Of a DNA stretch of 64,000 nt, positions 6,848-27,314 are shown piece after piece. Each line of letters starts with the position of its first letter. Positions within the stretch are counted from its first letter, which is position 1. Position numbers and translations under genes: made by a program. Under the pieces are notes generated by a model. It worked only from the letters and a program-made list of their open reading frames with translations. It was not told the origin of the DNA and ran no database searches. Source of the DNA: a virus (Duplodnaviria > Caudoviricetes); IMG/VR virus record IMGVR_UViG_3300037400_006508, positions 79,526-143,525 of that record; one strand, given 5' to 3'.

Positions 6848-7417
6848 ATGACACGTTACGAAAAGGGATTTCTTGCAAAGTGCGCGGAGTACGGGCTTCC
6901 GTACGAGAACGCGATCGGACTGTTCAAGTCTGCCAAGGTCACTGGACTCATGAGCGACGGAAGGGTCGTCACAATAGACCATGGGAAGAAGACGGTAGGC
7001 GGCGGCAGGCCGATGCCGTCCTCGGGCGCCGGGTTCGTTTATACCGGTAAGTCCGATCCAAGGACCGTTGCGTCCGGAGGAGGGAGGTACAGATACGCTC
7101 CGGCTTCCTCGCAACCGGGCGCAAAGTTGGCGAAGAGGCAGCCTGACGGGAAGGGCGGATACCGCATGTCCGAGCCGGAGTGGAGGAAGACGTACGGCAA
7201 CACGAAGAGACCGAACCTACCGCAGTCCGAGATCGACAGGATCCATGCGAAAAACGTATCGGCCATGAGGAGCGATCCGGACTACATCGCCTGGAGCAAC
7301 AGGGTCGACCGCGGAGTCAGGGAAGATCGCCTGCGTGCCGCCAGGGAGATGAACGAAATGGCTGAGAAGCTTCTAGCGGCACGCGCCGCGGCCAGGTCCC
7401 GTGGCGGAAGGTCGTAG
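6848..7417 (+). CDS. putative internal head protein, MTxYExGFL-leader family
   Basis: Starts MTRYEKGFLAKCAEYGLPYENAIGLFKSA. Basic C-terminal payload. Confidence 0.7.
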   Translation: MTRYEKGFLAKCAEYGLPYENAIGLFKSAKVTGLMSDGRVVTIDHGKKTVGGGRPMPSSGAGFVYTGKSDPRTVASGGGRYRYAPASSQPGAKLAKRQPDGKGGYRMSEPEWRKTYGNTKRPNLPQSEIDRIHAKNVSAMRSDPDYIAWSNRVDRGVREDRLRAAREMNEMAEKLLAARAAARSRGGRS

Positions 7418-7418
7418 G

Positions 7419-7994
7419 ATGACCCCGTACGAGTCCGGCTTCCTGTCCAGGTGCTCCGAACTTGGCGTTCCGGAGCGCCTTTCGTCGTCTTTGCTGAAGC
7501 GTGCGGCCGAGGTCGGTCTGAAGACGAACCTGACCACGCACGTGGACATGCCCTATGTACCTGCCGTCGATACGCCGGTTCCCGACAACCCTACGCCTCC
7601 TCCGTTCGACTGGTCGAAGCTGGAATGGAAGAAAAGGGAGCCGGGCCTCCTGACCCGTATACTGAACGGCAGGAGAATATCGAAGTATCCTGACTGGAAG
7701 GATCGCATGAACAGGGACGTCGAGGAGCACAACAAGGCCGTCAGCGACTGGTACGACGAGGCGTACAAGAAGCTTCCGCCGTTGCCCGGAGGACCGGTGC
7801 AGAAGCTCAGCGACATCTACGATTACGTACGGAGGCGGCATGCTTTCACGCCGCCGACCCATCTTATGAAGGAGCAGCCGTCCTTCTATTGGGACGACTC
7901 TCCGCAGGAATACAGGCCTCCCACGCGGGATGAAAGGTTCAAGGAGTGGAGGTTCCAGAATCCATGGACCCCCGCTTCCGAGTTCAAGGGGTAG
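7419..7994 (+). CDS. putative internal head protein, MTxYExGFL-leader family
   Basis: ATG at 7419: MTPYESGFLSRCSELGVPERLSSSLLKRAA. Pro/Trp-rich payload. Confidence 0.7.
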   Translation: MTPYESGFLSRCSELGVPERLSSSLLKRAAEVGLKTNLTTHVDMPYVPAVDTPVPDNPTPPPFDWSKLEWKKREPGLLTRILNGRRISKYPDWKDRMNRDVEEHNKAVSDWYDEAYKKLPPLPGGPVQKLSDIYDYVRRRHAFTPPTHLMKEQPSFYWDDSPQEYRPPTRDERFKEWRFQNPWTPASEFKG

Positions 7995-7998
7995 CCGG

Positions 7999-10566
7999 AT
8001 GTCCGTAAAGTCAGCCCAGATTCCGGTGGACTTCATGGGCTGGGCCCAGGCCCAGGTTCCACATGACGTCGTGTCGTCCGTCGAGCGCAGCACGCCGGAG
8101 AACAAGATCGCGTTCGGTACAGGCAAGGGCGTGAAGGCCGGGTTGTCCCCGGAGGAGGCGAAGCTACGCGCCCTTCAGCACGAACTGGCGCTAAATCAGC
8201 AGGAGAACACGTCCACCGGTCTTGTGTCGGGACGGCCGTACAAGAATCACGAGTTTTTTGCAAGGACCAATATGCCGGAGAAGGTGTATGTCAATGTAGG
8301 CGGGTACGGGGAAGGGGAAGGCAACCCGCTTCTGTTCGGCGGATCGATTTCCCCCAATCCTGTCCTTGATCTGGCTACACCCGGAAAGATAGCCCCGGAG
8401 GACACCCTATCGTTTCAGCAATCGCAGGGAAGGGCGGCACAGAACGCGATAGATCTATTCAGGGCCGCCGGCGTGCCAGTCGAGTTGTTCGGGCATTCGT
8501 ACGGAGGCGACACGGCCGCGCACCTGGCCGTTGCGAACCCGGACGTACCGACGCATGCAATAGATCCCGTCAGCATGTTCAATCAGGTTCCTTCGGAGAA
8601 GAGGCCGTCGAACCTGACCGTGTATCAGCCGTACGGCAGCGCATGGAACGACGTTCCGTACGATTTCATCGCAACCGTCGGAAACAAGTACGCCCCGGAC
8701 AGGAACACCGTTCAGTACGAAGGCGGCCATGTCAAGGGGACAGGGCAGCTTGTCGACAGCATAATAGACGATTCAACGGCGAAGCGGACGTCCGATGCCG
8801 CGGTTCCGGCGCCATCCGCGGTCGTTCCTCTAAAGAAGGCCGGAAGCGGCCTCGTAGGTCCGCACAACATAGGTTCCGTATTCATGAAGGCGGCCGCCAG
8901 CTATAGATGGGGAGACGCATCTGCAAAACCTATCGTACCGGCCGAGAAGCCGGCGGATCCGCCGGCGCAGCCGAAAGAAAAAGGATCCGGCGGGTTTTCC
9001 CTTTTCGACAATGCCGCTACAAGGGGCATAGCCGATGCGATAAACTGGGGAATCGACACAGGATCCAGGGTCGGAACGCGCATGGGGTGGGTCGATCCGG
9101 ACGCGAACGCAAGAAGGCTGAGGGACAGGGCCGCCCGCCGCGAGGCGGACGAGAACAACGGGGTCGTGACCGGAAAGTACTACCGCGAAGCCCTGGACAG
9201 CGCATTGGACGACTGGAACGCCGGACAGGGCGACAAGGCGTGGACGAGAACGCTTGACGACCATTTCAGGTGGGGGAACATAACTCCGCAGGAATACTAC
9301 GGCATGTTGAAGGACCAGTACGGCAAGTATGCGTACATGTTCGGCATGCCGGGGGACATGTCTGCCGATCCTAACGGGCAATTCCCGATTACCAGGGACG
9401 GGAAGCCGGTCATGGTTCTTGGAAATGGCAAAAACGAGCAAATGGCCGTCGACACCAGGCAGAGGCAGTATGCATTCCAGAAGATGCTGGAGGGCGCGGG
9501 GCAGCATTTCGCCCATATGAAGGACGGTGATGTCGGATTCTTCGGTCCCTACACCCGTGCGGCTTCGTTCGCCATAAACGAGGACAGGTCGTTGCACGAT
9601 GGACCTTTTGTAGCGAACACCGACAATCTTTCCGATGTATATCCGGCTCCAGGAAGCATGCGGACCGGAAAGCCGTGGGGGTACAATCTTGCCGATCTTT
9701 CAGACAAGGCGAAACAGTTTCGCATGGATCGCGAGCTGGAGTGGTACGATAGACAGCTGGAGGAAAGTCGGAAGCTTCCGGAGTGGCAACGCGTCCCAGG
9801 TCTCGAAGAAAGCATCCTTTCGGCCAAAGAATCGGCAAAAAGGCCATGGGAGAAGTATTTTGTGGAGACCCCGGCGCGCCTCAAGAGCCTCAGCGACGGA
9901 ATATCGATGAGAAAATACAATCTTGAAAACGGCGACGGCCTTACGCCGGAGGACAGGGATAGACTGCAATCGGAGATAGACTCCATGCAGAAGGAGTACG
10001 ACAGCCTGTATGAAGGCAGTCGCGAGCAGGATAAGATGGATTGGGCCAGGGTCGGAGACGCCGCCGGATTCGCGGTACCGTATCTTGCGTTTCCGACGTA
10101 CGCCATACCGACCTACGGAATAAGCTCGGCTACGCGAAACCTGAACAAAGGAAACTACGCGTCAGCCGTCATGGATGCCGCGACGGCGGCCATTCCTTTC
10201 GGGGTAGACAGACTCGGAATCAAAAACAAGGTAGGGCAGGTTGCGGCGAATCTCGTTCCGTTCGGCGTTGCGCAGACGGCCGGCCCGCTCTTGGACGAGT
10301 ATTCGTACGGCGGGTACAACGACGCGACTCCGGAGTATCAGGAGGCGATGTCCCGGATACAGAACGACATGCAGAGGACAAGGGACATATCCTCTCTTGC
10401 CGCGATGTTGTCGGGCTATGACCAGATGAGTCCGGAAGACCAGGCCGGTGTATGGAGGATGTTTAACAATCTGACGGAATCCGAGATGGATCAGCTGGAC
10501 GCATTCGTTAACCAAAATGGCGGGAAGATAGACATCCCATGGCGTACCCAGACCTATTTTAAGTAA
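7999..10566 (+). CDS. large multi-module putative virion protein with N-terminal alpha/beta-hydrolase domain
   Basis: ATG at 7999 (MSVKSAQ). Nucleophile elbow GHSYGG at 8491-8508, followed by IDPV and GGH. KxA sites flank the domain. Hydrophobic segments near the C-terminus. Confidence 0.7.
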   Translation: MSVKSAQIPVDFMGWAQAQVPHDVVSSVERSTPENKIAFGTGKGVKAGLSPEEAKLRALQHELALNQQENTSTGLVSGRPYKNHEFFARTNMPEKVYVNVGGYGEGEGNPLLFGGSISPNPVLDLATPGKIAPEDTLSFQQSQGRAAQNAIDLFRAAGVPVELFGHSYGGDTAAHLAVANPDVPTHAIDPVSMFNQVPSEKRPSNLTVYQPYGSAWNDVPYDFIATVGNKYAPDRNTVQYEGGHVKGTGQLVDSIIDDSTAKRTSDAAVPAPSAVVPLKKAGSGLVGPHNIGSVFMKAAASYRWGDASAKPIVPAEKPADPPAQPKEKGSGGFSLFDNAATRGIADAINWGIDTGSRVGTRMGWVDPDANARRLRDRAARREADENNGVVTGKYYREALDSALDDWNAGQGDKAWTRTLDDHFRWGNITPQEYYGMLKDQYGKYAYMFGMPGDMSADPNGQFPITRDGKPVMVLGNGKNEQMAVDTRQRQYAFQKMLEGAGQHFAHMKDGDVGFFGPYTRAASFAINEDRSLHDGPFVANTDNLSDVYPAPGSMRTGKPWGYNLADLSDKAKQFRMDRELEWYDRQLEESRKLPEWQRVPGLEESILSAKESAKRPWEKYFVETPARLKSLSDGISMRKYNLENGDGLTPEDRDRLQSEIDSMQKEYDSLYEGSREQDKMDWARVGDAAGFAVPYLAFPTYAIPTYGISSATRNLNKGNYASAVMDAATAAIPFGVDRLGIKNKVGQVAANLVPFGVAQTAGPLLDEYSYGGYNDATPEYQEAMSRIQNDMQRTRDISSLAAMLSGYDQMSPEDQAGVWRMFNNLTESEMDQLDAFVNQNGGKIDIPWRTQTYFK

Positions 10567-10569
10567 CAG

Positions 10570-11052
10570 ATGGCGTCCACCTTTTCATCCGTGATACAGC
10601 TTCTCCTGTCCGTGTTCGACTTCATAAGGGGCCGGTCGGACAGGAAGCGGAAAAGGCTTGACGTGCTGGAGGACAGGATAAAGGCGATCCAGCGCGATAT
10701 TGCAAAAGCCCTGGAAGATGGTAGAATAACCGACGTAGCCACCCTGAGGATGGAGTTGGACGGATTGAAGAAGGAGTACGACAAGCTTGGAGGAAAACGC
10801 GCATCGGTGGCCGCCGCCACCGGCATGCTTCTTTTTTTAGCCATTACGCCGTTTTTGTCCGGATGCTTTTCGACCAGGTCGGATCCGTCGACCCCGTATG
10901 TGGTCGTCGGCGAGAGGATCATAATACTGGAGCCCGGTTCCGAGCTCGTTGTTCCGGAACTGGTTCCTCCGGCGAAGAAATGGTACCTGATAGACAACAT
11001 AGGCCTTCAGGTCGGACTTGGCATACCGATGTTACTGGAGAACGACAGATGA
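10570..11052 (+). CDS. putative lipoprotein/spanin-like protein with internal lipobox
   Basis: N-terminal helix and coiled coil, then KR + hydrophobic stretch + FLSG-C lipobox, then a short Pro-rich tail. Confidence 0.5.
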   Translation: MASTFSSVIQLLLSVFDFIRGRSDRKRKRLDVLEDRIKAIQRDIAKALEDGRITDVATLRMELDGLKKEYDKLGGKRASVAAATGMLLFLAITPFLSGCFSTRSDPSTPYVVVGERIIILEPGSELVVPELVPPAKKWYLIDNIGLQVGLGIPMLLENDR

Positions 11053-11405
11053 AGGACTTTTCCGGGCTTCTCAAGATCGCCGGTGTCGGATACTCGCCCA
11101 CGGTGGGCGACTTCATGAACAGATGGAACGGCGACATCAACGCGAATCCGTTCCAGAGGAGCGACGCGTTCAGCCGGATCAACAACGCCGGGCTCGACGT
11201 CAAGCAGCCGGCATCCAGGATACCGTATGTCCTTGGCGGCGGCGTTCTTGGAAGGGCCGCGGCATCATACCTGGGGGCCAATCCGTTCTGGAAGAACGTA
11301 GCCACGGTAGGCGGGGCCATGGTCGGAAATTCCATTTACAAGAAGAACAATCCGGATCCAAGGGCGATGCCGGTCGCACCAGGAGTGATAAGGAGAGGTT
11401 GGTAG
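11049..11405 (+). CDS. small glycine-zipper membrane protein with KxA leader
   Basis: ATG at 11049 (ATGA overlap). MKDFSGLLKIAG; YVLGGGVLGRAAASYLG...VGGAMVG. Confidence 0.7.
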   Translation: MKDFSGLLKIAGVGYSPTVGDFMNRWNGDINANPFQRSDAFSRINNAGLDVKQPASRIPYVLGGGVLGRAAASYLGANPFWKNVATVGGAMVGNSIYKKNNPDPRAMPVAPGVIRRGW

Positions 11406-11765
11406 ATGTACAGGATAAACGAGTTCTTGACCCCCAGGGAGAGGGCCGAGGCGATAAGGGTCGGCGCTCTTCGCAAACTTGCTTCTTTGGGCATGACGCC
11501 GTCCGATTTTTCCCGCCAGATGAAAAAATCGGCCCTTGCCGGGGCCGCAGCCGGCGTCGGGGCTGCCGCGGCCGGCAAGATGGCGCCGCTTCTGTCCCCG
11601 AAGACGCTGTTTTCGCTTGCCATCTACCTTGGAATTCCGCTTGGGGCGCTGAGCTACGGCCTAAAGAGCTCGTTCTCCCCGGAGACAAGCGCAAACAGCG
11701 ATCTGAAGACCAAGCTTGACGAGATGAACGACATCGTCGAGCAGTACAGGAGGCAGCTCGGCTAA
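11406..11765 (+). CDS. small membrane protein with KxA leader
   Basis: RKLAS...KKSA followed by LAGAAAGVGAAAAG and TLFSLAIYLGIPLGALSYG. Confidence 0.7.
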   Translation: MYRINEFLTPRERAEAIRVGALRKLASLGMTPSDFSRQMKKSALAGAAAGVGAAAAGKMAPLLSPKTLFSLAIYLGIPLGALSYGLKSSFSPETSANSDLKTKLDEMNDIVEQYRRQLG

Positions 11766-12157
11766 TGAACCAGGGCATGCCGTCGTGGGCCGAGCTGATG
11801 GCCCGTATGCCGAAGTCCTCGGTCTTTCCACAGCCCAGCGAGGTTGCGCACGGGCTTGAGACGATCAAGTACAAGAAGACCCCCGTCGTGGTATCCGAGT
11901 ACCATGTGGAGGTGTTCGACATGGAGTCGAAGAAGGACAGGGAGGACTACTGCAAGCTGATGCTGGACCTTGCGAACAAGGTTCAGAACTCGCAGTGCAT
12001 GATCGGCAGGCAGGAGCTTGAGAAGATGACTTCCAAGGACGGATCCACCACGTGGAAGAGGTATGTTGAGTGGTTCGACTACAAGCTGAACGATACCAGC
12101 ACGACCACGAAGACGGAGGACGAGGAGAAAGATGGAGATGAATCAGAAAATGGCTGA
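11765..12157 (+). CDS. hypothetical protein
   Basis: TAATG-coupled 130-aa ORF with typical codon usage. Confidence 0.65.
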   Translation: MNQGMPSWAELMARMPKSSVFPQPSEVAHGLETIKYKKTPVVVSEYHVEVFDMESKKDREDYCKLMLDLANKVQNSQCMIGRQELEKMTSKDGSTTWKRYVEWFDYKLNDTSTTTKTEDEEKDGDESENG

Positions 12158-14096: not shown

Positions 14097-14097
14097 G

Positions 14098-17000
14098 ATG
14101 GCGGACGGCCTTCCAGAGGGACTTCGTGAATTCGACGACGCGAAGGCGACGCGGAAGCTCATTTACGACAATGTGCTTTCCGCGGTGCAGAAGCGTTTTC
14201 CTGTAGAGGACGACAACTACAGGCTCGAGCTCCTCGACGCCAGGTACGGCGGTCCGCAGGAGTATACGCTGGCTCAGCAGAAGAACGCCATCTTGCGCAA
14301 TAGAAACCTAAGGACTCCGATTGTCGGCAAGTGGCGTCTGACGGACAAGAAGACCGGCCAGGTGCTCGACGAACGCGAGGACCAGGTCATGCAGGTCCCG
14401 TACTGGACCGACCGCGGCACCATCATCAACAACGGGTCCGAGTACACGGTCATCACGCAGTCCAGGCTCCGTCCGGGCGTGTACGCCAGGCGCAAGACGA
14501 ACGGAGGCCTGGAGGCGCAGTTCAACATCGATCCAAGGACGGGTCATTCGTTCAGGATAGGCCTGAACCAGCAGACCGGCGTGTTCGACGTATCCGTAGG
14601 GCAGGGCCACATACCTCTGTACCAGGTTCTTCGCGGTCTCGGCGTCGACGACAAGGAGATCATCAGGAACTGGGGCGCGGATCTTACGGCGGCCAATGCG
14701 CAGAAGTCGGATCCGCAGGCGTGGAGGAAGCTCTACGAGCGTATGGCCGGGTACAGGGCGGATCCGAATTTGACCGACGCGGACAGGATGGAGTATGTCA
14801 GGAACGGTCTTACGTCGTATAAGGTCGATCCGGACATCGTCGAGAGGACGATGGGACTCCGCAACGTGTCCGGAGTCACCCCGCAGCTGCTCATGCGTGC
14901 GTCGCAGAAGCTTCTTAACATATCTCGCGGCGACGAGAAGCCGGACAATCGCGACAATCCAAGGTTTTCGGCTTACTACTCGATCGAGGACTTCCTCAAA
15001 GAGCGCGTTGACAAGGATGCTGGTCGTCTCACAAAGTCGCTTCTGTTCAGGGCAAGGAGAAATAGAAACCTGAAGGGAGTCCGCAGGGACGCCCTCGCCC
15101 CGTATGTGGATGCGTTCATCCAGGGATCCGGCCTTGCGATGCCGGGAGAGGAGGCGAATCCGCTCTCCACGCTCGAGCAGATGTCCAGGATATCCAAGTT
15201 CGGCGAAGGAGGAATCCAGTCCGAAGAAGCCGTAACCATGTCCGCCCGCGAGGTGAACGGGGACTACCTCGGGTTCGTAGATCCGGTAGCCGGTCCCGAA
15301 TCGGGCAGGATCGGCGTTGACGTCAGGGCCACCTACCATACGTACAAGGGCAAGGACAACAAGATCTATGGCGAATTCCTGGATGCAAAGACGGGAAAGA
15401 CGGCGTACGTCGACATCGGAACCGCCGCTGACAGAAAGATAGCCTTCCCGGGTCAGGACATGTCGAAGCCGTACGTGTATATCATGAAGGACGGCGTTCC
15501 GCAGATGGCTCCGACGTCGGAAGTGCAGTATATTGTTCCGAACTACGGGCGTGTCGTCGGGTCGAACACCAACATGAATCCGTTTCCGACGGCCGTCCAG
15601 CCGAACAGGCAGTTCTACGCGTCGAAGTTCTGGACGCAGTATCTGCCGCAGGCGAAGGGCGAGGTGCCGTTGGTGGACTCGCTTATGCCGGACGGGAAGC
15701 AGACCTGGAGCGAGTACTACGGCAGGAAGGTCGGAGCCGTCAAGTCCGATGTAGACGGAGTCGTTACGCGTGTCACGGACGACTCGGTCACCATCAAGGA
15801 CAACACGGGCAAGACGCACAAGGTGGAGCTCGTCAAGAATCTTCCGTTCAACAGGCTGTCCGGCATTTCGTTCAGTCCGTCCGTCGAAGTCGGGCAGGAC
15901 GTGAAGTCCGGCGACATGATCGCCCATTCCAACTTCACGGACAAGAAGACCGGTGCGATCAACATGGGCCAGAACCTGCATGCGGCGATCATACCGTACA
16001 GGGGATACTCGTTCGAGGACGCCCACGTCATATCGGAGTCCGCCGCGAAGAGGCTTGCGACGGACAGGCTGTACAGTTTCGACCATGATTCAAGAAACGG
16101 CGTCATACTGGACAAAAAGAAATACATATCCGCGTTTCCGTCCAAGTTCACCAAGGATCAGATAGAGACGCTTGACGACAATGGCCTTGTAAAGCCGGGT
16201 ACGATACTCCACAGGGGAGATCCCATTGTAACTTCTCTCGGGCCAAAGGTTCTTACCTCGTCTGACAAGGCTCTCGGCAAACTGTCCAAGGCGCTGAGGA
16301 ATTCGTATACGGACCGCACGGAGACATGGGAGCACGACTACGAGGGGAAGGTCGTAGACGCCGTAAGGACGGCCGGAGGCGCGAAGGTGAACGTCGTTGC
16401 GCAGCCGCCGGTCAGGGCCGGGGATAAGCTTTCCGGAAGGTTCGGGCTGAAGGGTGTCGTCGGAAAGGTCGTTCCGGACGACGAGATGCCGAGGGACGCC
16501 ACAACGAACCAGCCGTACGACATGCTCATCAATCCGATGGGCTTTCTTTCGCGAGTGGCGCCGGGCCAGATCATGGAGATGGCCATGGGCAAGGTCGCCA
16601 AGGCGACCGGAAAGCAGGTTCGCATACCGCAGCTTCCACCGCCGGAGGGATGGTACGAGTGGACGAAGAACCAGCTTGCTCAGAACAATCTAACGGACTC
16701 GGCCAATGTGTTCGATCCGACCACCGGAAAGACCATAAACAACATAGGCGACGGGTATCTGTTCATATCGGCGTTCCACCATCTGGCCGAGAAGAAGGAG
16801 TCGATGCGGGGCGCCGGAGACGCCGCGTATACGCAGGACGAGCAGCCGGCGAAGGGCGGAAAGACCGGCGCGAAACGTTCGTCCGGCCTGGACAACTGGG
16901 CCATGCTGTCGCATGGGGCCACGGACGTGCTGAAGGACGCCGTTCTGATCAGAGGAACGAGGAACGACAATTATTGGAACTCCCTTAAGCTCGGCCTTCC

Positions 17001-18480
17001 TCTTCCCGAACCGGAATCTCCGTTCATCTACAAGAAGTTTCTCAATACGCTCAGGGCCGGCGGCATCAACGTAGTCGAGAAGGGAAATATCACCAAGATC
17101 ATACCGCAGACCGACAAGGATGTCGAACAGCTCGCGAACGGCCGGGTCATATCGTCGTCCGAGATGGTCGATTCGTCGTTCGATCCCGTAAAGGGCGGTT
17201 TGTTCGATCTTGGAAAGACCGGCGGAATGGCCGGCAACCAGTGGTCGATGATCGAACTTCCGGAGCCGGTTCCGAATCCGATAATGGAGGAGCCGGTCAG
17301 GAGGGTTCTCGGTCTTACCGTGTCCAAGATGGAGGATGTTCTTGCCGGAAGAGAGAAGATCGACGGAAAGACCGGCGGCGAGGCGCTGAAGTCCGCGTTG
17401 GCGAAGGTTGACGTCGACAAGAAGATCGCCGACGCGAAGAGGGACATACTCGGCCAGCGTGGGGCGAAGAGAGACGACGCCGTCAAGGTATATAGGTACC
17501 TGACGGCCATGAAGGAGCAGGGTCTCAGCCCGCAGGATTGGATGGTGTCGAAGGTTCCCGTCATACCGCCTGCGTTCAGGCCGGTGTCCAAGATGGGAGA
17601 CGTAGCCCTTGTGTCCGACATGAACGACCTGTACAAGGACATCATAGAGAACGCGAACAACTTCAGGGAGCTGAAGAAAGACGTTTCCGACGAAGGCGTT
17701 GCCGACGAGAGGATCAATATATACAACTCCGTCAAGGCCGCGTACGGCCTGGGACAGCCGATCACGCCGGAGAACGCCGCAAAGGGCGTCAAGGGCGCAC
17801 TGAGGCAGGTCATCGGGTCGAGTCCGAAGTTCGGACAGTTCCAGTCGAAGGTTCTATCGAAAACGCTCGATAACGTAGGGCGCGGCGTCGTGACGCCGGA
17901 TCCGAATTTGGACATGAACCAGGTTGGAGTTCCGGAGAACATGGCCTGGGAGATGTACAAGCCGTATGTGTTGCGAGGGCTCGTGCGGACGGGATATCCG
18001 TCGGCCACCGCCGTTAAAATGGTCGCCGACAAGACGGATACGGCCAGGCATATACTGGAGAAGGAGATGGAGGAGCGTCCTATCATCATGGATCGCGCCC
18101 CGACGTGGCACAAGTTCAATTTCCTTGCCTTCACTCCGCATATAACGCAGGACGAAACGATACGCGTATGTCCTCTTATAGTAAGCGGGTTCAACATGGA
18201 CTTTGACGGTGACACGGTGAACATGCACGTACCGTCGTCACAGAAGGCGGTTGACCAGGCCAAGCGCATAATGATGCCGTCGGAGAATTTGATTTCTACC
18301 ACCGACCTTTCCTCTCCCATGCACTCCCCGTCGAAGGAGCAGATCTTTGGGCTGTACGCCGCTACGTCGAAGGTGAACCAGAAGCCAGTCAAGGTGTTCA
18401 ACACCGTTTCCGAGGCCAAGAGGGCGTATGCGGCCGGCGAGATAGAGATGAACGACCCGATAGAGATTCTACAGAAATGA
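14098..18480 (+). CDS. rpoB: DNA-directed RNA polymerase, fused beta + N-terminal beta' (RpoB-RpoC1-like)
   Basis: Beta motifs: PYWTDRGTIINNGSE..TQSRLRPGV, NPLS..RIS, GPESGRIG, GYSFEDA, GDKLSGRFGLKGVV, NPMGFLSR, HHLAEKK, WAMLSHGA. Then beta' motifs: GGLFD, IELPEP, VPVIPPAFRP, SDMNDLY, GRGVVTP, DRAPTWH, and catalytic NMDFDGD (18193-18213). Confidence 0.95.
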   Translation: MADGLPEGLREFDDAKATRKLIYDNVLSAVQKRFPVEDDNYRLELLDARYGGPQEYTLAQQKNAILRNRNLRTPIVGKWRLTDKKTGQVLDEREDQVMQVPYWTDRGTIINNGSEYTVITQSRLRPGVYARRKTNGGLEAQFNIDPRTGHSFRIGLNQQTGVFDVSVGQGHIPLYQVLRGLGVDDKEIIRNWGADLTAANAQKSDPQAWRKLYERMAGYRADPNLTDADRMEYVRNGLTSYKVDPDIVERTMGLRNVSGVTPQLLMRASQKLLNISRGDEKPDNRDNPRFSAYYSIEDFLKERVDKDAGRLTKSLLFRARRNRNLKGVRRDALAPYVDAFIQGSGLAMPGEEANPLSTLEQMSRISKFGEGGIQSEEAVTMSAREVNGDYLGFVDPVAGPESGRIGVDVRATYHTYKGKDNKIYGEFLDAKTGKTAYVDIGTAADRKIAFPGQDMSKPYVYIMKDGVPQMAPTSEVQYIVPNYGRVVGSNTNMNPFPTAVQPNRQFYASKFWTQYLPQAKGEVPLVDSLMPDGKQTWSEYYGRKVGAVKSDVDGVVTRVTDDSVTIKDNTGKTHKVELVKNLPFNRLSGISFSPSVEVGQDVKSGDMIAHSNFTDKKTGAINMGQNLHAAIIPYRGYSFEDAHVISESAAKRLATDRLYSFDHDSRNGVILDKKKYISAFPSKFTKDQIETLDDNGLVKPGTILHRGDPIVTSLGPKVLTSSDKALGKLSKALRNSYTDRTETWEHDYEGKVVDAVRTAGGAKVNVVAQPPVRAGDKLSGRFGLKGVVGKVVPDDEMPRDATTNQPYDMLINPMGFLSRVAPGQIMEMAMGKVAKATGKQVRIPQLPPPEGWYEWTKNQLAQNNLTDSANVFDPTTGKTINNIGDGYLFISAFHHLAEKKESMRGAGDAAYTQDEQPAKGGKTGAKRSSGLDNWAMLSHGATDVLKDAVLIRGTRNDNYWNSLKLGLPLPEPESPFIYKKFLNTLRAGGINVVEKGNITKIIPQTDKDVEQLANGRVISSSEMVDSSFDPVKGGLFDLGKTGGMAGNQWSMIELPEPVPNPIMEEPVRRVLGLTVSKMEDVLAGREKIDGKTGGEALKSALAKVDVDKKIADAKRDILGQRGAKRDDAVKVYRYLTAMKEQGLSPQDWMVSKVPVIPPAFRPVSKMGDVALVSDMNDLYKDIIENANNFRELKKDVSDEGVADERINIYNSVKAAYGLGQPITPENAAKGVKGALRQVIGSSPKFGQFQSKVLSKTLDNVGRGVVTPDPNLDMNQVGVPENMAWEMYKPYVLRGLVRTGYPSATAVKMVADKTDTARHILEKEMEERPIIMDRAPTWHKFNFLAFTPHITQDETIRVCPLIVSGFNMDFDGDTVNMHVPSSQKAVDQAKRIMMPSENLISTTDLSSPMHSPSKEQIFGLYAATSKVNQKPVKVFNTVSEAKRAYAAGEIEMNDPIEILQK

Positions 18481-18650: not shown

Positions 18651-18662
18651 TTGGGGGCTAAA

Positions 18663-19148
18663 ATGACACCATACGAACTTGGTTTTTTGAAAACTGCGCG
18701 GGCCAAGCTGTCTGACAGCGACGTGGAAGCCTTGCGCGAGATGATGGCGCAGCAGAAGGAGAACGCGAGGCAGCGCGAGCTGCGTCGTACCGCAAGGTTC
18801 GACAAGAACCGCAAGGAGCGCGTAAGGGATGCGAAGAACTACATGATGATAATCCTCGGCCTTGCCGGATTCATGGGCGGAAGGCTTGCGGGAGGCGCAA
18901 TCGGAAAGTCGATCGGACAGCCCGGAGACATGACGCACAACAAGGGTGCTCTCATCGGGTCGCTGTCTGGGTTGGTTGCCGGAGGAATAGGCGGACGTTA
19001 CTTCGGAGAAGGGGCAGGAAACAGGACCGCCGACAGGATGGAGCAGATCGAGAAGGACACCGGGATACGAGTCAACGAGCAGGAGACGGAGAACCTGGCC
19101 CGCACGACGAACAACCTGATGCTCTACAACACGTTTTTCAAACACTAG
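18663..19148 (+). CDS. glycine-zipper 2TM protein with MTPYELGFLKTA leader
   Basis: ATG at 18663. Leader matches the family. ILGLAGFMGGRLAGGAIG...GALIGSLSGLVAGGIGG. Confidence 0.75.
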   Translation: MTPYELGFLKTARAKLSDSDVEALREMMAQQKENARQRELRRTARFDKNRKERVRDAKNYMMIILGLAGFMGGRLAGGAIGKSIGQPGDMTHNKGALIGSLSGLVAGGIGGRYFGEGAGNRTADRMEQIEKDTGIRVNEQETENLARTTNNLMLYNTFFKH

Positions 19149-19178
19149 TTGCCTACATCGGCACATTTTTGGTAAAGT
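19149..19178 (+). promoter_or_regulatory. sigma70-like promoter TTGCCT-N18-TAAAGT with extended -10 TGG
   Basis: Intergenic. Followed by AAGGAAGG RBS and ATG at 19205. Confidence 0.55.
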
Positions 19179-19204
19179 AGATGTCAAGCAAGGAAGGACA
19201 CAAC

Positions 19205-19747: not shown

Positions 19748-19751
19748 TTAC

Positions 19752-20729: not shown

Positions 20730-20731
20730 AG

Positions 20732-22591
20732 ATGCCGACAACGATCGGCCAGATCTACGTAAATGAAGCCCTTCCTCCGGAGTACCGTGACTACAACAGG
20801 GTCATGGGCGCTCCGGAGATGAAGGGCATTCTGACCGACATAATCAATAACCACCCGGACAAGTACAGGGAGGTATCGGCCGCCCTCATGCGAGCAGGAA
20901 ACAAGTTCGCGTACGAGGGAGGTACGACCCTTAGGCTGTCCGACGTGGCTCCGCCCTTTGACAGAAAGCCGCTGTACGCGTCGATAGAGAAGGCCGAGAA
21001 CGCGATACGTTCATCCAGGCTGTCCGACGACGAGAAGAACGAGCAGCTTAAGTCCCTCTACGAAAAGGCGTACGAAGCCATAAAGGGCGATACGTACGAC
21101 GTGGCTCTTGCCGCCAACAATCCGTTCGCCCTGCAGGTGAAGTCGAAGGCGAGAGGCGACCCAAACCAGTTGTCGGCCATGCTGTCAACGCCAGGCGTGT
21201 ATGCGAACAGCAAGGGCGAGACGATCCCCATGTTCATCAAGCATAGCTACGCGGAGGGGCTTTCACCGGCGGAGATATGGGCCGGAGCGTACGGCGCCAG
21301 ACTAGGAACAGTGTCGACGAAGTTCGCGACGAGGCAGGCCGGAGAGCTTGGAAAGCTCCTTACGTCCGCGTCGATCGATCAGGTAGTTACGGAGGATGAC
21401 TGCGGTACGATCAACGGGATGCCGGCAAGCGTTGACGACAACGACAACATAGGCGCCCTTCTGGCGTCTCCAGCCGGCGGATACGATGCCGGTACGATCA
21501 TAACGAAATCGGTTCTGTCCGATATAAGGAAGTCGGGCGCCACCGACATACTGGTCAGGTCTCCGATAACATGCGGTGCCAAGAACGGGGTATGTTCGCA
21601 TTGCGCCGGGGTCAGGGAGACCGGAGGCCTTCCGCCCGTCGGGTACAACCTCGGTACGAACGCTGCGGCGGCTCTAGCCGAGAGGCTGGCCCAGGGTTCT
21701 TTGAACGTAAAGCACAGCGGAAAGAAGAACAAGGGCGCCGGACAGTACCAGGGGTTCGAGATGATCAAGCGCATGGCGACGGTGCCGAAGAACTATGCGG
21801 ACCGCGCCACCGTTGCCGAGCTGGACGGAACGGTCGACAAGATAGTCAACGCCCCCCAGGGAGGCCATTTCGTAGTAATAGGCGACCAAAAGCACTATGT
21901 TCCTTCCGGGTATGACATTCTGGTCAAGGAGGGCGATTCCGTCGAGGCGGGAGACCAGCTTTCTGATGGGGTCATCAGTCCGGCCGACGCCGTCAGGCTC
22001 AAAGGCATCGGCGAAGGCCGCAGGTACTTTGCGAACAGGTTCACGAAGGCGTTCAGGGATTCGGGCTACGCCGTGAACAGAAGGAACGCCGAGGCCGTCG
22101 CAAAGGCGCTCATAAACAATGTGGTGGTCGAGAGCGAGGACGCCGAGGCGCAGATGCTGCCGGGCGATACCGTCACCTACGGCAGATGGTCATGGGGATA
22201 CAAGCCGCGTCCGAATTCGACGCAGCTGTCGCCGAAGGCGGCGATAGGGCAGTATCTCGAACAGCCGGCCCTTCACTATACGATAGGCACCAGGATCACA
22301 AAGAAGGTCGCGGACGAGCTTACGAAGTTCAAGGTACCGGCCGTGTTGGCGAACAAGTCGGCCGTCGGAGTACGTCCGGAGATGCAGTCCGTCGTGCAGA
22401 CGACAGGAAACACCGACGACTGGATGGCGAGGCTGGGCACCACGTATCTCGGCAAGAGACTGACGGAGGACGTACAGCGCGGCGCCGAGTCCAACGTCCA
22501 TGGGACGAATCCGTACCCCGGTATAGCGAAGGGTACCGAGTTCGGACAATGGGGTTCGCCCGGACACAGGGACGGGCCGTACTATTACTAG
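20732..22591 (+). CDS. rpoC: DNA-directed RNA polymerase beta' C-terminal half (RpoC2-like)
   Basis: KSKARG..QL (SGARG), SYAEGLS..GAYGARLG (bridge helix), EDDCGT, VRSPITC..GVCSHCAG (Zn site), trigger loop AQGSLNVKH, sandwich-barrel hybrid VKEGDSVEAGDQLSDG. Confidence 0.93.
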   Translation: MPTTIGQIYVNEALPPEYRDYNRVMGAPEMKGILTDIINNHPDKYREVSAALMRAGNKFAYEGGTTLRLSDVAPPFDRKPLYASIEKAENAIRSSRLSDDEKNEQLKSLYEKAYEAIKGDTYDVALAANNPFALQVKSKARGDPNQLSAMLSTPGVYANSKGETIPMFIKHSYAEGLSPAEIWAGAYGARLGTVSTKFATRQAGELGKLLTSASIDQVVTEDDCGTINGMPASVDDNDNIGALLASPAGGYDAGTIITKSVLSDIRKSGATDILVRSPITCGAKNGVCSHCAGVRETGGLPPVGYNLGTNAAAALAERLAQGSLNVKHSGKKNKGAGQYQGFEMIKRMATVPKNYADRATVAELDGTVDKIVNAPQGGHFVVIGDQKHYVPSGYDILVKEGDSVEAGDQLSDGVISPADAVRLKGIGEGRRYFANRFTKAFRDSGYAVNRRNAEAVAKALINNVVVESEDAEAQMLPGDTVTYGRWSWGYKPRPNSTQLSPKAAIGQYLEQPALHYTIGTRITKKVADELTKFKVPAVLANKSAVGVRPEMQSVVQTTGNTDDWMARLGTTYLGKRLTEDVQRGAESNVHGTNPYPGIAKGTEFGQWGSPGHRDGPYYY

Positions 22592-22596
22592 GCAAA

Positions 22597-22625
22597 TTGC
22601 AACAAGTTGTTTCTTTTGGTACGAT
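22597..22625 (+). promoter_or_regulatory. sigma70-like promoter TTGCAA-N17-TACGAT with extended -10 TGG
   Basis: AT-rich intergenic gap with canonical spacing. Confidence 0.65.
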
Positions 22626-22650
22626 GAAATAAATCCGAAGGGGATAAGGG

Positions 22651-25146
22651 ATGGCGAATAAATTCAGTTTCAAGTCGCTTCTTGCCGACGACCGGCTTGT
22701 TCCGGATCTGTGGCTTCACAAGGAGGCGCAGGAGCAGCCGGACGAGACGCAGTTCGCGCAGGACTTCGCTAACTTGGCGTTCCAGTTCATGCAGGACAGG
22801 GCGCCGGCCATGATGAAGTACCTTCTGGGCTTCGAGGTCGTGGACCGTGCGGAGAACGGAACGCGTGCCGTCGGTATTTTCGGGTTCAAGATCGACGGGG
22901 ACTATTTCTACGTTCCGGCGTTCTTCCTGAACTCCCAGGTCAAGGGCATCGATTCCATTCTTTCCAAGCGGACCAATTCGTTCGTGCCCCTTACGGAGGA
23001 ATGGATCAACTATATCATCAACAGGAAGGCGAACGAGCTTGGCAAGGAGGCCCCCAAGGAGACAACCGACGGAGACGGCCAGGCCGAGTTCGAGAATCCG
23101 AACTTCGATTTCCTCCGTACGCCGACCGTAGGTCCGCTCGGAGGATACAATTCCAGCTACAAGATAGCGGAGGACAAGTCCCCGTGGACCTTCGCGAAGG
23201 CGTGGGAGGTAATGAAGTCCGGTACCGAGGAGCATATGGAGAAGGACTCGGAGCTCCGCGAGGCGTTCGTCGGATTCTGCTGCGCCGTGAAGGGCGTCAG
23301 GTCGCCTATGCACAAATCCGCTTCTTCCCCGATACAGGAATTCATATCGAAGGTCGGCGGCCCTGCGTCCGAGCGCACGTTCATGCGTTCGCTGAAGAAC
23401 GTCAAGATGGCGAACGCCGCGTTGGAGTTCTACACCGGCCCGGAGGCGTTCCACGTGTCGTCCTACCCGAACCGCGGAAAGGACTGCTACCTTCTACGGA
23501 AGAAGGCCGAGGAGATTTCCGAGAAGGCCCCGAAGGTTGAAATCACCGACGACTCGCAGAGCGAGGAGGAGGCACGCGACGTAATAGAGGACGGATTCAC
23601 GGTGAGAGACAGACGCGACGAGGCGGAGAAGTCCGACGTCGTGTCTACCGACTACGAGAAGTCGTTCCAGAATCCGGACAAGCCAGGCGCGTACGACGTT
23701 CTTGTCACCGGAGGCGTCACGAAGAGGGCCTACGTGTTCGCGGCCGATCGCATGTTCCATCGCGGCGAGCGCGGTACGATGGTCGTCTACTTCCCGGACA
23801 ACAAGCAGGTCATCACGGCCAGGAACCGCGACATCTTCACCGAGGGCGGCTGCCAGGAGGAGATGCAGGACGTGTACGGAAAGGGCAAGGACATACAGGA
23901 CTGCGCCCTTCATGGTAAGTACATCTTCATCGGAAAGAACGGTGTATCCCTTCCCGAGTTCTACGTCAGCAATCTGAAGAGGGACAAGGGCGAGCGTCCT
24001 GTCATTTCCGGCAATTTCGAGTACTTCTCGGATCCAGACTGGCGTCCGGACTTCGACGACGATTTCACCAATTATTGGAAGGGTGACGAGTTCCATCACA
24101 GGAACGGCCTTACGAAGATTCGTCCGTCTGAAATGTCGTTCTGCGATGTAGAGCTTGCTTCGTTCACCGGATCGCCGAAGTTCACCGGAAGTTCGGTCGT
24201 GATGCCGTCCGATTGGAAGGCCCTGCAGGTCGGCGAGATCGAGCGCGGGTGGGACGAGTACGAGCCGATGTCCTCGACCGAGGAGGCGTTGAAGAACAAG
24301 GACAAGGTGACCTACAAGCTGGGTTCGCTTGATTCCCTGTCGTTCGACCTCCGCAAGGAGGGTGCCGCAAGGCTCGATCTACGCTCCGATGACGGTACCA
24401 CGTTCTATTTCAACATGGACAAGGCCCCGTCGTTCACGAGGCCGGTAGGGTACAAGCAGGCCGCGATTTCGCTCGTGACGAAGCTTGGACTCCGTTATCC
24501 GGATGCCAAGAAGCTGCTCAAGACGGCTGCTGTCGAAAGGAAGGCCGTGTGCCTCGTCAAGTTCGCGCAGATGTCTCCTCTGGTCGGTGTTTCGACCGGA
24601 GTACCTACCGAGCAGACGCCGGGCGTCGATCCGTACACGGGAATACCGGCGTACGATCTGCCGTTCATCGACAAGACCACGATGCCGTTCAACGGCGTCG
24701 AGCTTCCTCCGCAGGACAACCCGTACGGCGAGAACCTCGATGGCGAGATCTCGAGGCAGTCCGAGTCCGCAGGAGACGGTCAGGGGGAGGCGGAGTTCGA
24801 CGAGGAAGCCGCAGGACTCGCGCAGGACGCTGCGAAGCTCGGGCAGAAGCATGTGTTCGACAAGGCGGCGATCGGCGGTCTGGCGAAGGTGTACGACACA
24901 GGAGCCGTGATCGACTCCTATATACCGGAGTTCCTGACCGCCGTAGACAGGCTTGGTCGCGTGCTGTTTCTCTACTATTGGAAGCACAACGATTTCATCG
25001 AAAGGTACGGTACGGACGACGTCATCGAGATGGAGGACGTCCTTCGTGGTACCTTCAAGCAACTTGGGAAGCTTACGCTCGACCTCAAAAGGAAAGCCGT
25101 TGGCGGTGGGGATTCGGACGCCAGCATAGACACGATTGGAGCATAA
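22651..25146 (+). CDS. large KxA-rich putative virion (inner head) protein
   Basis: 831 aa with strong high-expression codon bias. HKEAQ, YKIA, HKSA, KKAE, YKQA, LKTA, VKFAQ. Confidence 0.7.
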   Translation: MANKFSFKSLLADDRLVPDLWLHKEAQEQPDETQFAQDFANLAFQFMQDRAPAMMKYLLGFEVVDRAENGTRAVGIFGFKIDGDYFYVPAFFLNSQVKGIDSILSKRTNSFVPLTEEWINYIINRKANELGKEAPKETTDGDGQAEFENPNFDFLRTPTVGPLGGYNSSYKIAEDKSPWTFAKAWEVMKSGTEEHMEKDSELREAFVGFCCAVKGVRSPMHKSASSPIQEFISKVGGPASERTFMRSLKNVKMANAALEFYTGPEAFHVSSYPNRGKDCYLLRKKAEEISEKAPKVEITDDSQSEEEARDVIEDGFTVRDRRDEAEKSDVVSTDYEKSFQNPDKPGAYDVLVTGGVTKRAYVFAADRMFHRGERGTMVVYFPDNKQVITARNRDIFTEGGCQEEMQDVYGKGKDIQDCALHGKYIFIGKNGVSLPEFYVSNLKRDKGERPVISGNFEYFSDPDWRPDFDDDFTNYWKGDEFHHRNGLTKIRPSEMSFCDVELASFTGSPKFTGSSVVMPSDWKALQVGEIERGWDEYEPMSSTEEALKNKDKVTYKLGSLDSLSFDLRKEGAARLDLRSDDGTTFYFNMDKAPSFTRPVGYKQAAISLVTKLGLRYPDAKKLLKTAAVERKAVCLVKFAQMSPLVGVSTGVPTEQTPGVDPYTGIPAYDLPFIDKTTMPFNGVELPPQDNPYGENLDGEISRQSESAGDGQGEAEFDEEAAGLAQDAAKLGQKHVFDKAAIGGLAKVYDTGAVIDSYIPEFLTAVDRLGRVLFLYYWKHNDFIERYGTDDVIEMEDVLRGTFKQLGKLTLDLKRKAVGGGDSDASIDTIGA

Positions 25147-25244
25147 AAGATGACAAGGTACGAACAAGGATTCCTCACCAAGTGCGCTTCGGCCAGAGTT
25201 CCGAAGAACGTAGCCTTCGCCCTTCTGAAGAGGGCGCAGGAAGC
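25146..25244 (+). repeat. direct repeat copy 1 (about 100 nt, leader-coding)
   Basis: Near-identical to 26326-26424 (atgacaaggtacgaacaagg...gccttcgcccttctgaagagggcgcagga). Confidence 0.9.
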
Positions 25245-25938
25245 CGGCTCGCAGGACGCGCAGCTCGGCTCACTGGATCAGGCCGAAAACGATTATCTTA
25301 AGCAACTTGGTAGGATGGAGAGTCTTGGCGAAGTTGATGACGATGGAAGTGGCAGCTCGGTAACTTTAAATCCGTTAGGCCATATATTTATGGACAGAGT
25401 GAAACGCATGGGTCTTACTGGTGGTCAGTACGATCAGCTATCGTATCCAGACGCACTTGCGAATATCCCGTGGAGTAATAAATTCGGACGCACTGTGCAT
25501 AGCGTGGTGGATCCGATTTATAGCGCATTTGTATCAGATCCGCTAGAGAGATCAATAACGAGTCCGAGGATAACGATGGACGAGCTTGAAGCCGCAAGGG
25601 CTGCGCAGGCTGAATGGGGTGCAAATCAGATATTCCCGGCTGGAACGAGGGCCAACAAGAAGATACAGGAGAGCCTTATAAACGCCGGCAGGAAGAATTA
25701 CCAGAATTGGCTTGACTGGGGTACGGGTGCGCCGAGAGACAAGTACGATCCTACAGGAATAGAAGGCATGAATCTTGGTGAACCTCCGGAGCCCGGTGTG
25801 GATTACACCGAGCGGTTTGATTACGGCTCAGGCGTCAATTCTCTTACGCCGAGGAATATCCCGAAGCAGGAACTTCTCAGGCAGTATCAGAATTCAATGG
25901 TAAGAAACGGGTCTGGCAATAGGTCTGGGGTGGCGTGA
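25150..25938 (+). CDS. putative internal head protein, MTxYExGFL-leader family
   Basis: MTRYEQGFLTKCASARVPKNVAFALLKRAQE. Paralogue of 26330..26944. Confidence 0.75.
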   Translation: MTRYEQGFLTKCASARVPKNVAFALLKRAQEAGSQDAQLGSLDQAENDYLKQLGRMESLGEVDDDGSGSSVTLNPLGHIFMDRVKRMGLTGGQYDQLSYPDALANIPWSNKFGRTVHSVVDPIYSAFVSDPLERSITSPRITMDELEAARAAQAEWGANQIFPAGTRANKKIQESLINAGRKNYQNWLDWGTGAPRDKYDPTGIEGMNLGEPPEPGVDYTERFDYGSGVNSLTPRNIPKQELLRQYQNSMVRNGSGNRSGVA

Positions 25939-25939
25939 G

Positions 25940-26311
25940 ATGGACGAAGACGAGAAGCAGGAGAAATTCCGCGAGGAGGTAAGGGAGTTTCTCGCAAGGG
26001 ACAAGTTGACCCTGGATAATCTTGTTATGAGGGTCGACAAGCTTGAGAAGACAGTGGTTCACGGCAATGGCGATCCGCCCCTTACGACTCAGATAGCCGC
26101 CATGCAGGTGCAGATGAACAATTTCAGGGACGAGCTGAAGGAAGTAAAGGACAAGATGGGCAAGCTGGATCAGATGTGCGTTGACGTGGCCAGCATAAAC
26201 GCAAAGCTTACGGCTAGGGCAAGCAGCAATGGCATGTGGATATGGGCGATCATCACGGTAGGAGCCGTAGTTTTGACGCCGATTCTAGAGCATTTCCTGT
26301 TCGGAAAGTAA
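25940..26311 (+). CDS. coiled-coil protein with single C-terminal TM (holin/XhlA-like architecture)
   Basis: LEKTVVHGNG, heptad region, then MWIWAIITVGAVVLTPIL. Confidence 0.55.
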   Translation: MDEDEKQEKFREEVREFLARDKLTLDNLVMRVDKLEKTVVHGNGDPPLTTQIAAMQVQMNNFRDELKEVKDKMGKLDQMCVDVASINAKLTARASSNGMWIWAIITVGAVVLTPILEHFLFGK

Positions 26312-26325
26312 AAGAGACAAGGAGA

Positions 26326-26424
26326 AAAAATGACAAGGTACGAACAAGGGTTTCTAACCAAGTGCGCTTCGGTCCGTGTTCCGAAGAACGTAGCCTTCGC
26401 CCTTCTGAAGAGGGCGCAGGAGGC
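26326..26424 (+). repeat. direct repeat copy 2 (about 100 nt, leader-coding)
   Basis: Near-identical to 25146-25244. Confidence 0.9.
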
Positions 26425-26944
26425 GAAGAATGATGACGCCGGTATAGGCGGTTACTCCGCTAATGGAATAAATTGGCTGGATACCGATCATGTTTTGGCG
26501 CCTAATCACAACTCATACGCAGGAAGACTTCTAGGGAATGCGAGAGGTGCTGAACGGATGGATTCCGGTAGATCAGGTATCAAAGCACCCAGATACTCTC
26601 CTGCCACTAATCTCTATTATGCAATGCCATCTTCAGACAATACCAATTCAGGTCCAATAAGCCAGCGTAGTCTTGACGGGATTAGAAGTAGTCAGGCCCA
26701 TCAGAACGCCGCGTCTATTGGATACTTCGGAGTTCCTCGAGATCGTATCATAAATAACCTTATTGAGGCAGGAAAGAAAAACCAGCAGAGCTACATCGAT
26801 ACCGGAACAGTCCCGAAGCGCGATACGCTCGATAGGACCGGCATAGAGACGCTGCAGCTCAGCCCGGAGGACGAGGCCCAGCTTCTGGAGATGCAGAATA
26901 CCATGGCTAGGAATTCAAGACGTGGTACGAACGTGACGGCGTAA
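26330..26944 (+). CDS. putative internal head protein, MTxYExGFL-leader family
   Basis: RBS AAGGAG. MTRYEQGFLTKCASVRVPKNVAFALLKRAQE. Confidence 0.75.
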   Translation: MTRYEQGFLTKCASVRVPKNVAFALLKRAQEAKNDDAGIGGYSANGINWLDTDHVLAPNHNSYAGRLLGNARGAERMDSGRSGIKAPRYSPATNLYYAMPSSDNTNSGPISQRSLDGIRSSQAHQNAASIGYFGVPRDRIINNLIEAGKKNQQSYIDTGTVPKRDTLDRTGIETLQLSPEDEAQLLEMQNTMARNSRRGTNVTA

Positions 26945-26963
26945 TGTCTTTAGTGAAACCAAA

Positions 26964-27314
26964 ATGACACAGAACTACGTAAACGGATTTTTCACCAAGT
27001 GCGCGGAACAAAGGGTTCCGTACGATATCGCCGTTGCGCTGTACAAGAAAGCAGGTACTACAGGATTGTACGAGGCTCCTGTAACTCCAGCTGTACGCGC
27101 TGCCTACAATACGGGCGCTGCGCTTGGTACGGCAACCCGTGCAATGATGCCCGGTGGCAAGACCGAGATGGTGAGAAGGGGTCTTGTGTCGTATCTTAAG
27201 AACAGAGCAACTAGAGCAGCGATGAAAAAGCGTGAGGCGCAGAAAGTTCCGGCGAATAACGCTGCGGACAAAGCGGCCAGAGCCGCTGCCGTTATGATGG
27301 GCACGCAGAAGTAG
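26964..27314 (+). CDS. small basic putative internal head protein, leader-family variant
   Basis: MTQNYVNGFFTKCAEQRVPYDIAVALYKKAG. Confidence 0.7.
   Translation: MTQNYVNGFFTKCAEQRVPYDIAVALYKKAGTTGLYEAPVTPAVRAAYNTGAALGTATRAMMPGGKTEMVRRGLVSYLKNRATRAAMKKREAQKVPANNAADKAARAAAVMMGTQK

Follow-up and report, generated by a model that had tools for sequence, protein, structure and literature searches.

Short helical elements bring proteins to the inner face of HK97-fold shells through conserved basic residues, as in the helix-turn-helix coat-binding domain of the P22 scaffolding protein, the cargo-loading peptides of encapsulins and the capsid-targeting tail of the HK97 protease; these elements are C-terminal, and each belongs to one protein or to few cargo types. 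At the N-terminus, the internal proteins IPI, IPII, IPIII and Alt of phage T4 carry the capsid-targeting sequence (CTS) MKTYQEFIAE, which is removed by the prohead protease gp21 (PMC8442874, PMC9026906). The internal proteins are 'highly basic' (PMC8442874); within the CTS, residues 4 and 7 matter most for targeting, and residues 8 and 10 for processing (PMC9026906). In the phiKZ-like phage SPN3US, the propeptides of the ejection proteins gp53 and gp54 were shown by mass spectrometry to be cut at A-x-E by gp245, and the characterised gp21-type proteases all cut after Glu, in L/I-x-E in T4 and in A/S/G-x-E in phiKZ-like phages (PMC5694885). The present analysis concerned a peptide of about 29 residues, the leader, with which six genes begin in a 64,000-nucleotide stretch of phage DNA (positions 79,526 to 143,525 of IMG/VR record IMGVR_UViG_3300037400_006508; the window). 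By its predicted fold the leader is an autonomous, portable N-terminal helix-turn-helix module, and it was tentatively read, at somewhat short of an even chance, as a capsid-targeting-like docking tag that loads proteins into the head.

The window was the final 64 kb of a 143,525-bp phage contig (about 95% complete, CheckV estimate), and its plus strand held nearly all of its genes. The shared peptide began at residue 1 in six of six genes, all on the plus strand (starts at 6848, 7419, 18663, 25150, 26330 and 26964), with the consensus M-T-x-Y-E-x-G-F-h-x-K-C-A-E-x-G-h-[D/P]...A..LhK.A. The starts of 7419 and 18663 were the ATG before the leader and not an upstream GTG or TTG. The six genes, with lengths in amino acids (aa) and, where given, the isoelectric point (pI) of the payload behind the leader, were as follows.

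6848-7417, plus strand: leader gene 1 (189 aa); leader MTRYEKGFLAKCAEYGLP..LFKSA, residues 1-29 (6848-6934); payload Gly/Arg-rich, pI 10.7.
7419-7994, plus strand: leader gene 2 (191 aa), beginning one base past the stop of leader gene 1; leader MTPYESGFLSRCSELGVP..LLKRA (7419-7505); payload Pro/Trp-rich.
18663-19148, plus strand: leader gene 3 (161 aa), between two RNA polymerase genes; leader MTPYELGFLKTA.., degenerate, without the Cys and Glu of K-C-A-E (K-T-A-R in its place); payload with a glycine-zipper segment.
25150-25938, plus strand: leader gene 4 (262 aa), paralogue of leader gene 5, starting 4 bases past a gene for a gp218-like protein; leader MTRYEQGFLTKCAS.RVP..LLKRA, common to genes 4 and 5.
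26330-26944, plus strand: leader gene 5 (204 aa); 34% identity to gene 4 outside the leader.
26964-27314, plus strand: leader gene 6 (116 aa); leader MTQNYVNGFFTKCAEQRVP..LYKKA, of the 'MTQNYVNGFFTKCAE' subtype; payload pI 11.1.

All open frames of the 143.5-kb genome, in six frames, were searched with a profile built from the six leaders. The six leaders scored 57-77 bits (E 1e-16 to 1e-23), and a seventh copy was found at genome positions 72238-72570, 7.3 kb upstream of the window (E 5.5e-5). The next best match had E 1.2, and the recurrence of the leader was therefore not attributable to chance. The seventh copy read MSEAYRTGFYAKCAEAGIDP..LYKAA and was followed by a LysM domain (Pfam E 4.5e-14). 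The first-pass annotation of this DNA had claimed that six dispersed genes share the leader; all six were confirmed, and the family was larger than claimed, with the seventh copy and with 4-13 copies per relative. It had also claimed that the proteins diverge past the leader apart from one pair, and similarity outside the leader was indeed found only between 25150 and 26330. The leaders of this pair were identical in 16 of the first 17 residues, with 4 synonymous differences; the two proteins also shared a C-terminal block and differed in their middle parts, a pattern that fits exchange of the middle part between conserved ends. Among all copies of the source genome (G000), 41 of 95 same-residue codon pairs (43%) differed synonymously, which argued for conservation at the protein level and not for a DNA element or recent gene conversion. 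Inspection for a shared promoter or ribosome-binding site upstream of the leader genes gave only ordinary GGAG-like sites.

Eleven leader genes were found in the relative G001 (176.8 kb, complete, RNA polymerase 73% identical to that of the source phage), six of them in one array, 12-13 in G002 (IMGVR_UViG_3300045988_110837; 151 kb, with terminal repeats) and 4 in G003 (55% complete). The leader was at or near the N-terminus in all copies of these three genomes and in all seven of the source genome. Relatives with as little as 52% identity in the capsid protein still had a leader gene at the position of leader gene 6, about 8 kb upstream of the gene for that protein, and the relative L017 had one at the same place as leader gene 3, between the polymerase genes. 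A short form with a briefer second helix (..YGIDGRELLYKQA) prevailed in G002. This genome also held very short members (53-61 residues) and an open frame consisting of the leader alone (L020:4941-5039; 32 residues); decay of full copies or a minimal peptide form may account for them.

In a search of 1.84 billion representative proteins, a profile built from ten leaders matched 449 protein clusters at E<=1e-3. The module started at residue 1 in 131 of the best 150 family members; 8 of the 150 matched just the second half of the profile, through low-complexity sequence, and the remainder had offset, tandem or internal copies, 5 of them fusions behind DUF3008. In these five independent metagenome clusters (P0072, P0084, P0102, P0142 and P0143), DUF3008 (MPAKSKAQQRLFGMVHAYQKG...) stood in frame before a complete leader starting M-T-R-Y-E; they may be real fusions or run-on gene calls.

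No Pfam-A or PHROGs model sensibly covered residues 1-30 of the six proteins at E<=1, and Pfam over 142 members gave payload domains only and none on the leader. The motif was not found in a full-text literature search. A strict degenerate DNA pattern had 13 sites in three IMG/VR contigs and no match in 185,579 prokaryote genomes, the pattern being an exact one that divergent copies would escape. The 29-residue folded hairpin with its K-C-A-E core is thus new to the searched databases and literature. The kind of element, an N-terminal tag common to unrelated head-cargo proteins, is a known one (T4 CTS, N-termini of SPN3US gp53 and gp54).

Residue conservation was calculated from 135 members aligned on the G-F core. 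The near-invariant core was residues 1-17, MTxYExGFhxKCAExGh, with M1 at 88%, T2 at 87%, Y4 at 99%, E5 at 84%, G7 and F8 at 100%, K11 at 99%, C12 at 100%, A13 at 99%, E14 at 93%, G16 at 86% and V, L or I at position 17 at 96%. Conservation beyond the core was lower (D or P at position 18, 73%; A22, L25 and K27, 70% each; A29, 67%), and information content fell to background from position 31 on, so that the boundary of the leader was sharp. The 'final KxA' described in the first-pass annotation was real and only moderately conserved (K27 and A29 as above). Its expectation that a profile search of the genome and its relatives would return N-terminal hits with diverse C-termini was borne out (131 of 150 N-terminal); of the K-x-A end, K27 was present in 70% and A29 in 67% of the aligned members.

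AlphaFold2 (AF2) was run on the 25150 protein with the 142-member alignment. The per-residue confidence (pLDDT) was 97-98 for residues 1-30 and mostly below 70 for the remainder, and the model had a helix at 3-14, a turn at 15-18 and a helix at 19-38. Residues A22, L25, L26 and A29 are spaced i, i+3, i+4 and i+7 and form one face of helix 2; by this periodicity the K-x-A end looks like the end of a helix-packing face rather than a cleavage motif. On helix 1, Y4, F8, K11/C12 and Y15 lined up as another stripe. That polar and aromatic positions on the surface hardly vary among hundreds of paralogues speaks for a common partner of the leader. Residues 1-34 retrieved generic helix hairpins only from the ESM Atlas. 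A Sec/Tat signal peptide or a lipoprotein signal was ruled out: the leader was charged or polar throughout (MTRYEQGFLTKCAEYG...) with no hydrophobic run, and its Cys was preceded by T-K and not by the L-[AS]-[GA] of a lipobox.

Leader-stripped payloads were highly diverse, 130 of them falling into 114 BLAST groups. This diversity, together with the predicted hairpin ahead of low-confidence sequence and the tandem and fused copies, agreed with the earlier proposal that the leader is a portable module and not part of a fold shared along the full protein length. Whole leader proteins had a median length of 163 residues. Payload pI had a median of 10.0 and exceeded 8 in 91% of cases, compared with a median of 5.7 and 32% above 8 in the other plus-strand open reading frames of the source genome. 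The payload domains found by Pfam were Gly-zipper (6 members), DUF3008 (3), LysM (2) and single oddities, with no enzyme or toxin domains, and the other payloads were small, basic and of low complexity; the 'diverse effectors' of the first-pass annotation were accordingly not borne out. Only one of the seven source-genome payloads (LysM) had a homologue among the leader genes of G001, despite 87% identity of the capsid protein and 73% identity of the RNA polymerase between the two phages. So nearly complete a replacement of payloads among closely related phages suggests that the cargo is under strong pressure to diversify.

Fast payload evolution is also usual in host-interaction proteins, and the leader could be a domain common to a family of small basic proteins whose place is the infected cell and not the virion. 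It would serve for oligomerisation or bind nucleic acid, membranes or a host factor, and the variable tails would adapt the proteins to different targets. A helix hairpin is a generic interaction unit, as the look-alikes of the structure search illustrate, copies could be linked through the near-invariant Cys, by pairing or by a shared metal, and tandem copies occur. All copies, however, were in late structural operons on the structural strand and none in the early or replication part, one copy was a conserved member of the head module, and a nearly fixed N-terminal position (131 of 150) would be unusual for a plain domain. This explanation was considered unlikely.

Leader genes were co-oriented and tightly packed with structural genes: in the window two were upstream of the polymerase, one was between the polymerase genes and three followed the gp218-like gene. 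The other features of this region were the following.

14098-18480, plus strand: RNA polymerase chain of 1460 aa in which beta is joined to an N-terminal portion of beta'; nearest cultured relative gp206 of Salmonella phage Arash (32% identity, 98% of the length aligned).
20732-22591, plus strand: C-terminal part of RNA polymerase beta' (619 aa); Arash counterpart gp216 by annotation and position.
22651-25146, plus strand: gp218-like protein (831 aa); weak similarity to the Arash structural/virion protein gp218; directly upstream of three leader genes.
31451-32869, plus strand: head maturation protease, residues 1-209 with the T4 gp21 fold; homologue of Arash virion protein gp222.
32874-34055, plus strand: acidic Ala/Glu-rich protein (393 aa) between the protease and capsid genes; probable scaffold by position and composition.
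35043-36017, plus strand: major capsid protein (324 aa); 27% identity to Arash gp226 (E 2e-26), and 86-87% identity in the relatives G001 and G002.

The virion proteome of Arash has gp206 as its most abundant protein and the beta' subunit gp216 among the most abundant (PMC10585845), and by analogy the RNA polymerase of the source phage is probably packaged in the virion. The layout of this polymerase was unusual in that beta' is split, its N-terminal part sharing a chain with beta and its remainder having a gene of its own; the fused chain was also present in Arash and in Vibrio phages D69, D181 and D148. Three small genes, one of them a leader gene, sat between the two polymerase genes.

With leader genes flanking and interrupting the polymerase genes and following the gp218-like gene, the hairpin could instead be a plug that fastens interchangeable small proteins to a virion or ejection hub outside the head-core pathway. 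The portal, a tail part, the gp218-like protein and the virion RNA polymerase are conceivable hubs. On this view the tagged proteins would be virion-associated or ejected, but the tag would not direct loading through the scaffold and would stay in place. The folded hairpin that AF2 predicts, with its invariant stripe exposed, would suit such a plug, as would the existence of tandem and internal copies, and the LysM and glycine-zipper payloads would suit a channel crossing the cell envelope. The hub itself is hypothetical; the payloads were mostly basic and of low complexity, like DNA-associated internal proteins; and a conserved copy was in the head module, upstream of the protease, scaffold and capsid genes. 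This explanation, too, was judged improbable.

The 31451-32869 product was folded with 36 relatives (mean pLDDT 86). With residues 1-209, Foldseek ranked T4 gp21 (PDB 5jbl) first (probability 0.98), and VIA aligned 147/164 residues to 5jbl (Z 11.2, root-mean-square deviation 3.1 A); the next VIA entry (Z 5.2) was the herpes simplex protease, of the same fold class. On this modelled structure the source phage encodes a head protease of the T4 gp21 type. A profile of the protease alignment gave no relevant match to PDB sequences. H54, S146 and H174 were invariant in the 36 relatives and are candidate catalytic residues. An invariant C156-x2-C159 ... C172-x-H174 cluster, which may bind zinc, lay behind the gp21-like domain, and the C-terminal half of about 260 residues was helical; to our knowledge, neither the cluster nor the helical half is known in T4 gp21.

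A second protease was weighed as a processing enzyme for the leader. A gene for a metacaspase-like Peptidase_C14 was located at genome positions 71143-72003 (L018:11143-12003), 7.5 kb upstream of the window, and the leader could be the recognition sequence of such a dedicated enzyme, as in precursors of bacteriocins or of ribosomally synthesised and post-translationally modified peptides, with cutting after Lys (K11 or K27). The gene had intact YSGHGG and DCCHSG motifs in G000, G001, G002, G003 and L015 and was absent from Arash, which has no leader. It adjoined leader genes in four of the five closest genomes, being beside the leader-LysM gene in G000 and L015, beside the six-leader array in G001 and within 5 kb of leader genes in G003. 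In the wider lineage the two-way genomic linkage failed: leaders occurred without C14 in G006 (6 leader genes) and G004 (4), C14 occurred without a leader in G007, G010 and G013, and a leader gene lay within 10 kb in only 3 of 58 IMG/VR C14 loci, the three closest, with none at the 55 others. Adjacency of C14 and leader genes was therefore most simply inherited gene order, the enzyme was rejected as a dedicated leader peptidase, and the explanation as a whole was held to be highly improbable. Peptidase_C14 was kept in about half of the lineage, with relatives at the 58 loci, and had a hydrophobic N-terminal segment in G001 and G002.

Two further genes of the source genome lay outside the window. 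The portal homologue (genome 67548-70211) was longer than the Arash portal (887 residues, compared with 579) and aligned to it over roughly the last 470 residues only; its long N-terminal extension is reminiscent of the large propeptides found on the portals of phiKZ-like phages. A family 8 glycosyltransferase (genome 75009-76307; Pfam E 1.8e-25) was located among tail-fibre-like genes.

The tentatively preferred reading, a capsid-targeting-like docking tag, drew on the likeness to T4. The first-pass annotation had given the T4 precedent correctly, and its interpretation was borne out in part. In both, an N-terminal peptide is common to otherwise unrelated, basic, fast-evolving proteins, several copies are present per genome in genes among the head genes, and the phage encodes a prohead protease with the gp21 fold. 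Y4, F8 and the pair A13-E14 of the leader resemble the aromatic residue 4, Phe 7 and A-E pair of the T4 CTS, a likeness that is only a lead, ten residues being too short for a significant score. Differences from the T4 CTS were also evident: the leader has 29 residues (core 17) instead of 10, is a predicted helix-turn-helix with a near-invariant K-C-A-E that includes a Cys, occurs in tandem or internally in some proteins, and belongs to a phage lineage unrelated to T4 by capsid and polymerase. It lacks the L/I-x-E that ends the T4 CTS, the nearest equivalent being C12-A13-E14.

Phages of the phiKZ-like group (SPN3US) resemble the source phage in having a virion-type RNA polymerase and a gp21-type protease. 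SPN3US and the leader family both have paralogous proteins, putative head proteins in the latter, with conserved N-termini and divergent remainders; in SPN3US the conserved N-terminus is confined to two paralogues, whereas the leader is on unrelated proteins. The SPN3US propeptides have 20 to more than 100 residues and no sequence likeness to the leader, for which cleavage is putative. The residue at P3 of the protease site is small in both cases (A/S/G in phiKZ-like phages, C in the leader at its predicted site). We know of no sequence similarity of the leader to the P22, encapsulin or HK97 elements.

If the leader is a docking tag of this kind, the module would during head assembly tether a varying assortment of small, strongly basic and rapidly evolving proteins to some part of the prohead interior that is itself conserved, for which the scaffold or core, the protease and the shell are candidates. 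The attached proteins would be enclosed with the DNA, as the 10-residue CTS achieves for the basic internal proteins of T4. In a further step, likely by analogy, the gp21-like protease would trim the tag after the conserved C-A-E14, where helix 1 ends. Given that cleavage follows Glu in all characterised proteases of the gp21 type, C12-A13-E14, at the boundary of helix 1 and the turn, would be the most plausible site if that protease trims the tag; a check for C-A-E in other head proteins gave no informative recurrence. We infer docking to a head component, presence of the tagged proteins in the virion and cleavage of the tag. When residues 1-36 of the leader (alignment A3) were co-folded with the major capsid protein (alignment A4), the scores were 0.00, 0.39 and 0.00, the mark being 0.32; these modelled scores count neither for nor against binding.

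Several observations weighed against loading into the head. Proteins of the packaged type in this lineage (RNA polymerase subunits, gp218-like protein) had no leader, so that the leader is not a general packaging signal. C-A-E differs from the T4 L/I-x-E motif, and the leader is three times as long as the T4 CTS and predicted to be folded. The module was in tandem, C-terminal or behind DUF3008 in some natural proteins, and divergent versions in distant members of the capsid lineage started 5-11 residues from the N-terminus; tandem, internal and offset copies fit a general binding domain and a head-loading signal equally well. For LysM and glycine-zipper payloads, a role in the cell envelope during infection would be just as conceivable. 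No cultured phage was found to carry the module: tblastn with two family members gave no match in 50,697 GenBank phage records, and Arash had no match to the leader profile.

A more specific form of the preferred reading, in which the leader is a transferable head-loading address, was rather doubtful. In it, a folded tag of 17-29 residues would dock to the prohead core through the exposed Y4/F8/K11/C12 stripe and be clipped after C-A-E14 by the gp21-like protease. If this holds, any protein that acquired the tag would be packaged and delivered with the DNA, near-total replacement of cargo between phages with 87% identical capsid proteins would be explained, and the leader would be a second packaging tag of defined structure, independent of that of T4 and usable for protein delivery.

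Should the leader prove not to be a loading signal, it would still be a large protein module described by no database. Should it be one, an unrelated lineage would have the capsid-targeting principle of T4 over again, with a longer and folded peptide, and a defined peptide with clear residues to mutate would be available for studying the recruitment of internal proteins. A tag that loads the head would also define, readable directly from sequence, the packaged cargo of a widespread group of uncultured phages of 140-210 kb, whose capsid proteins form at least 350 clusters and whose tagged proteins form at least 449.

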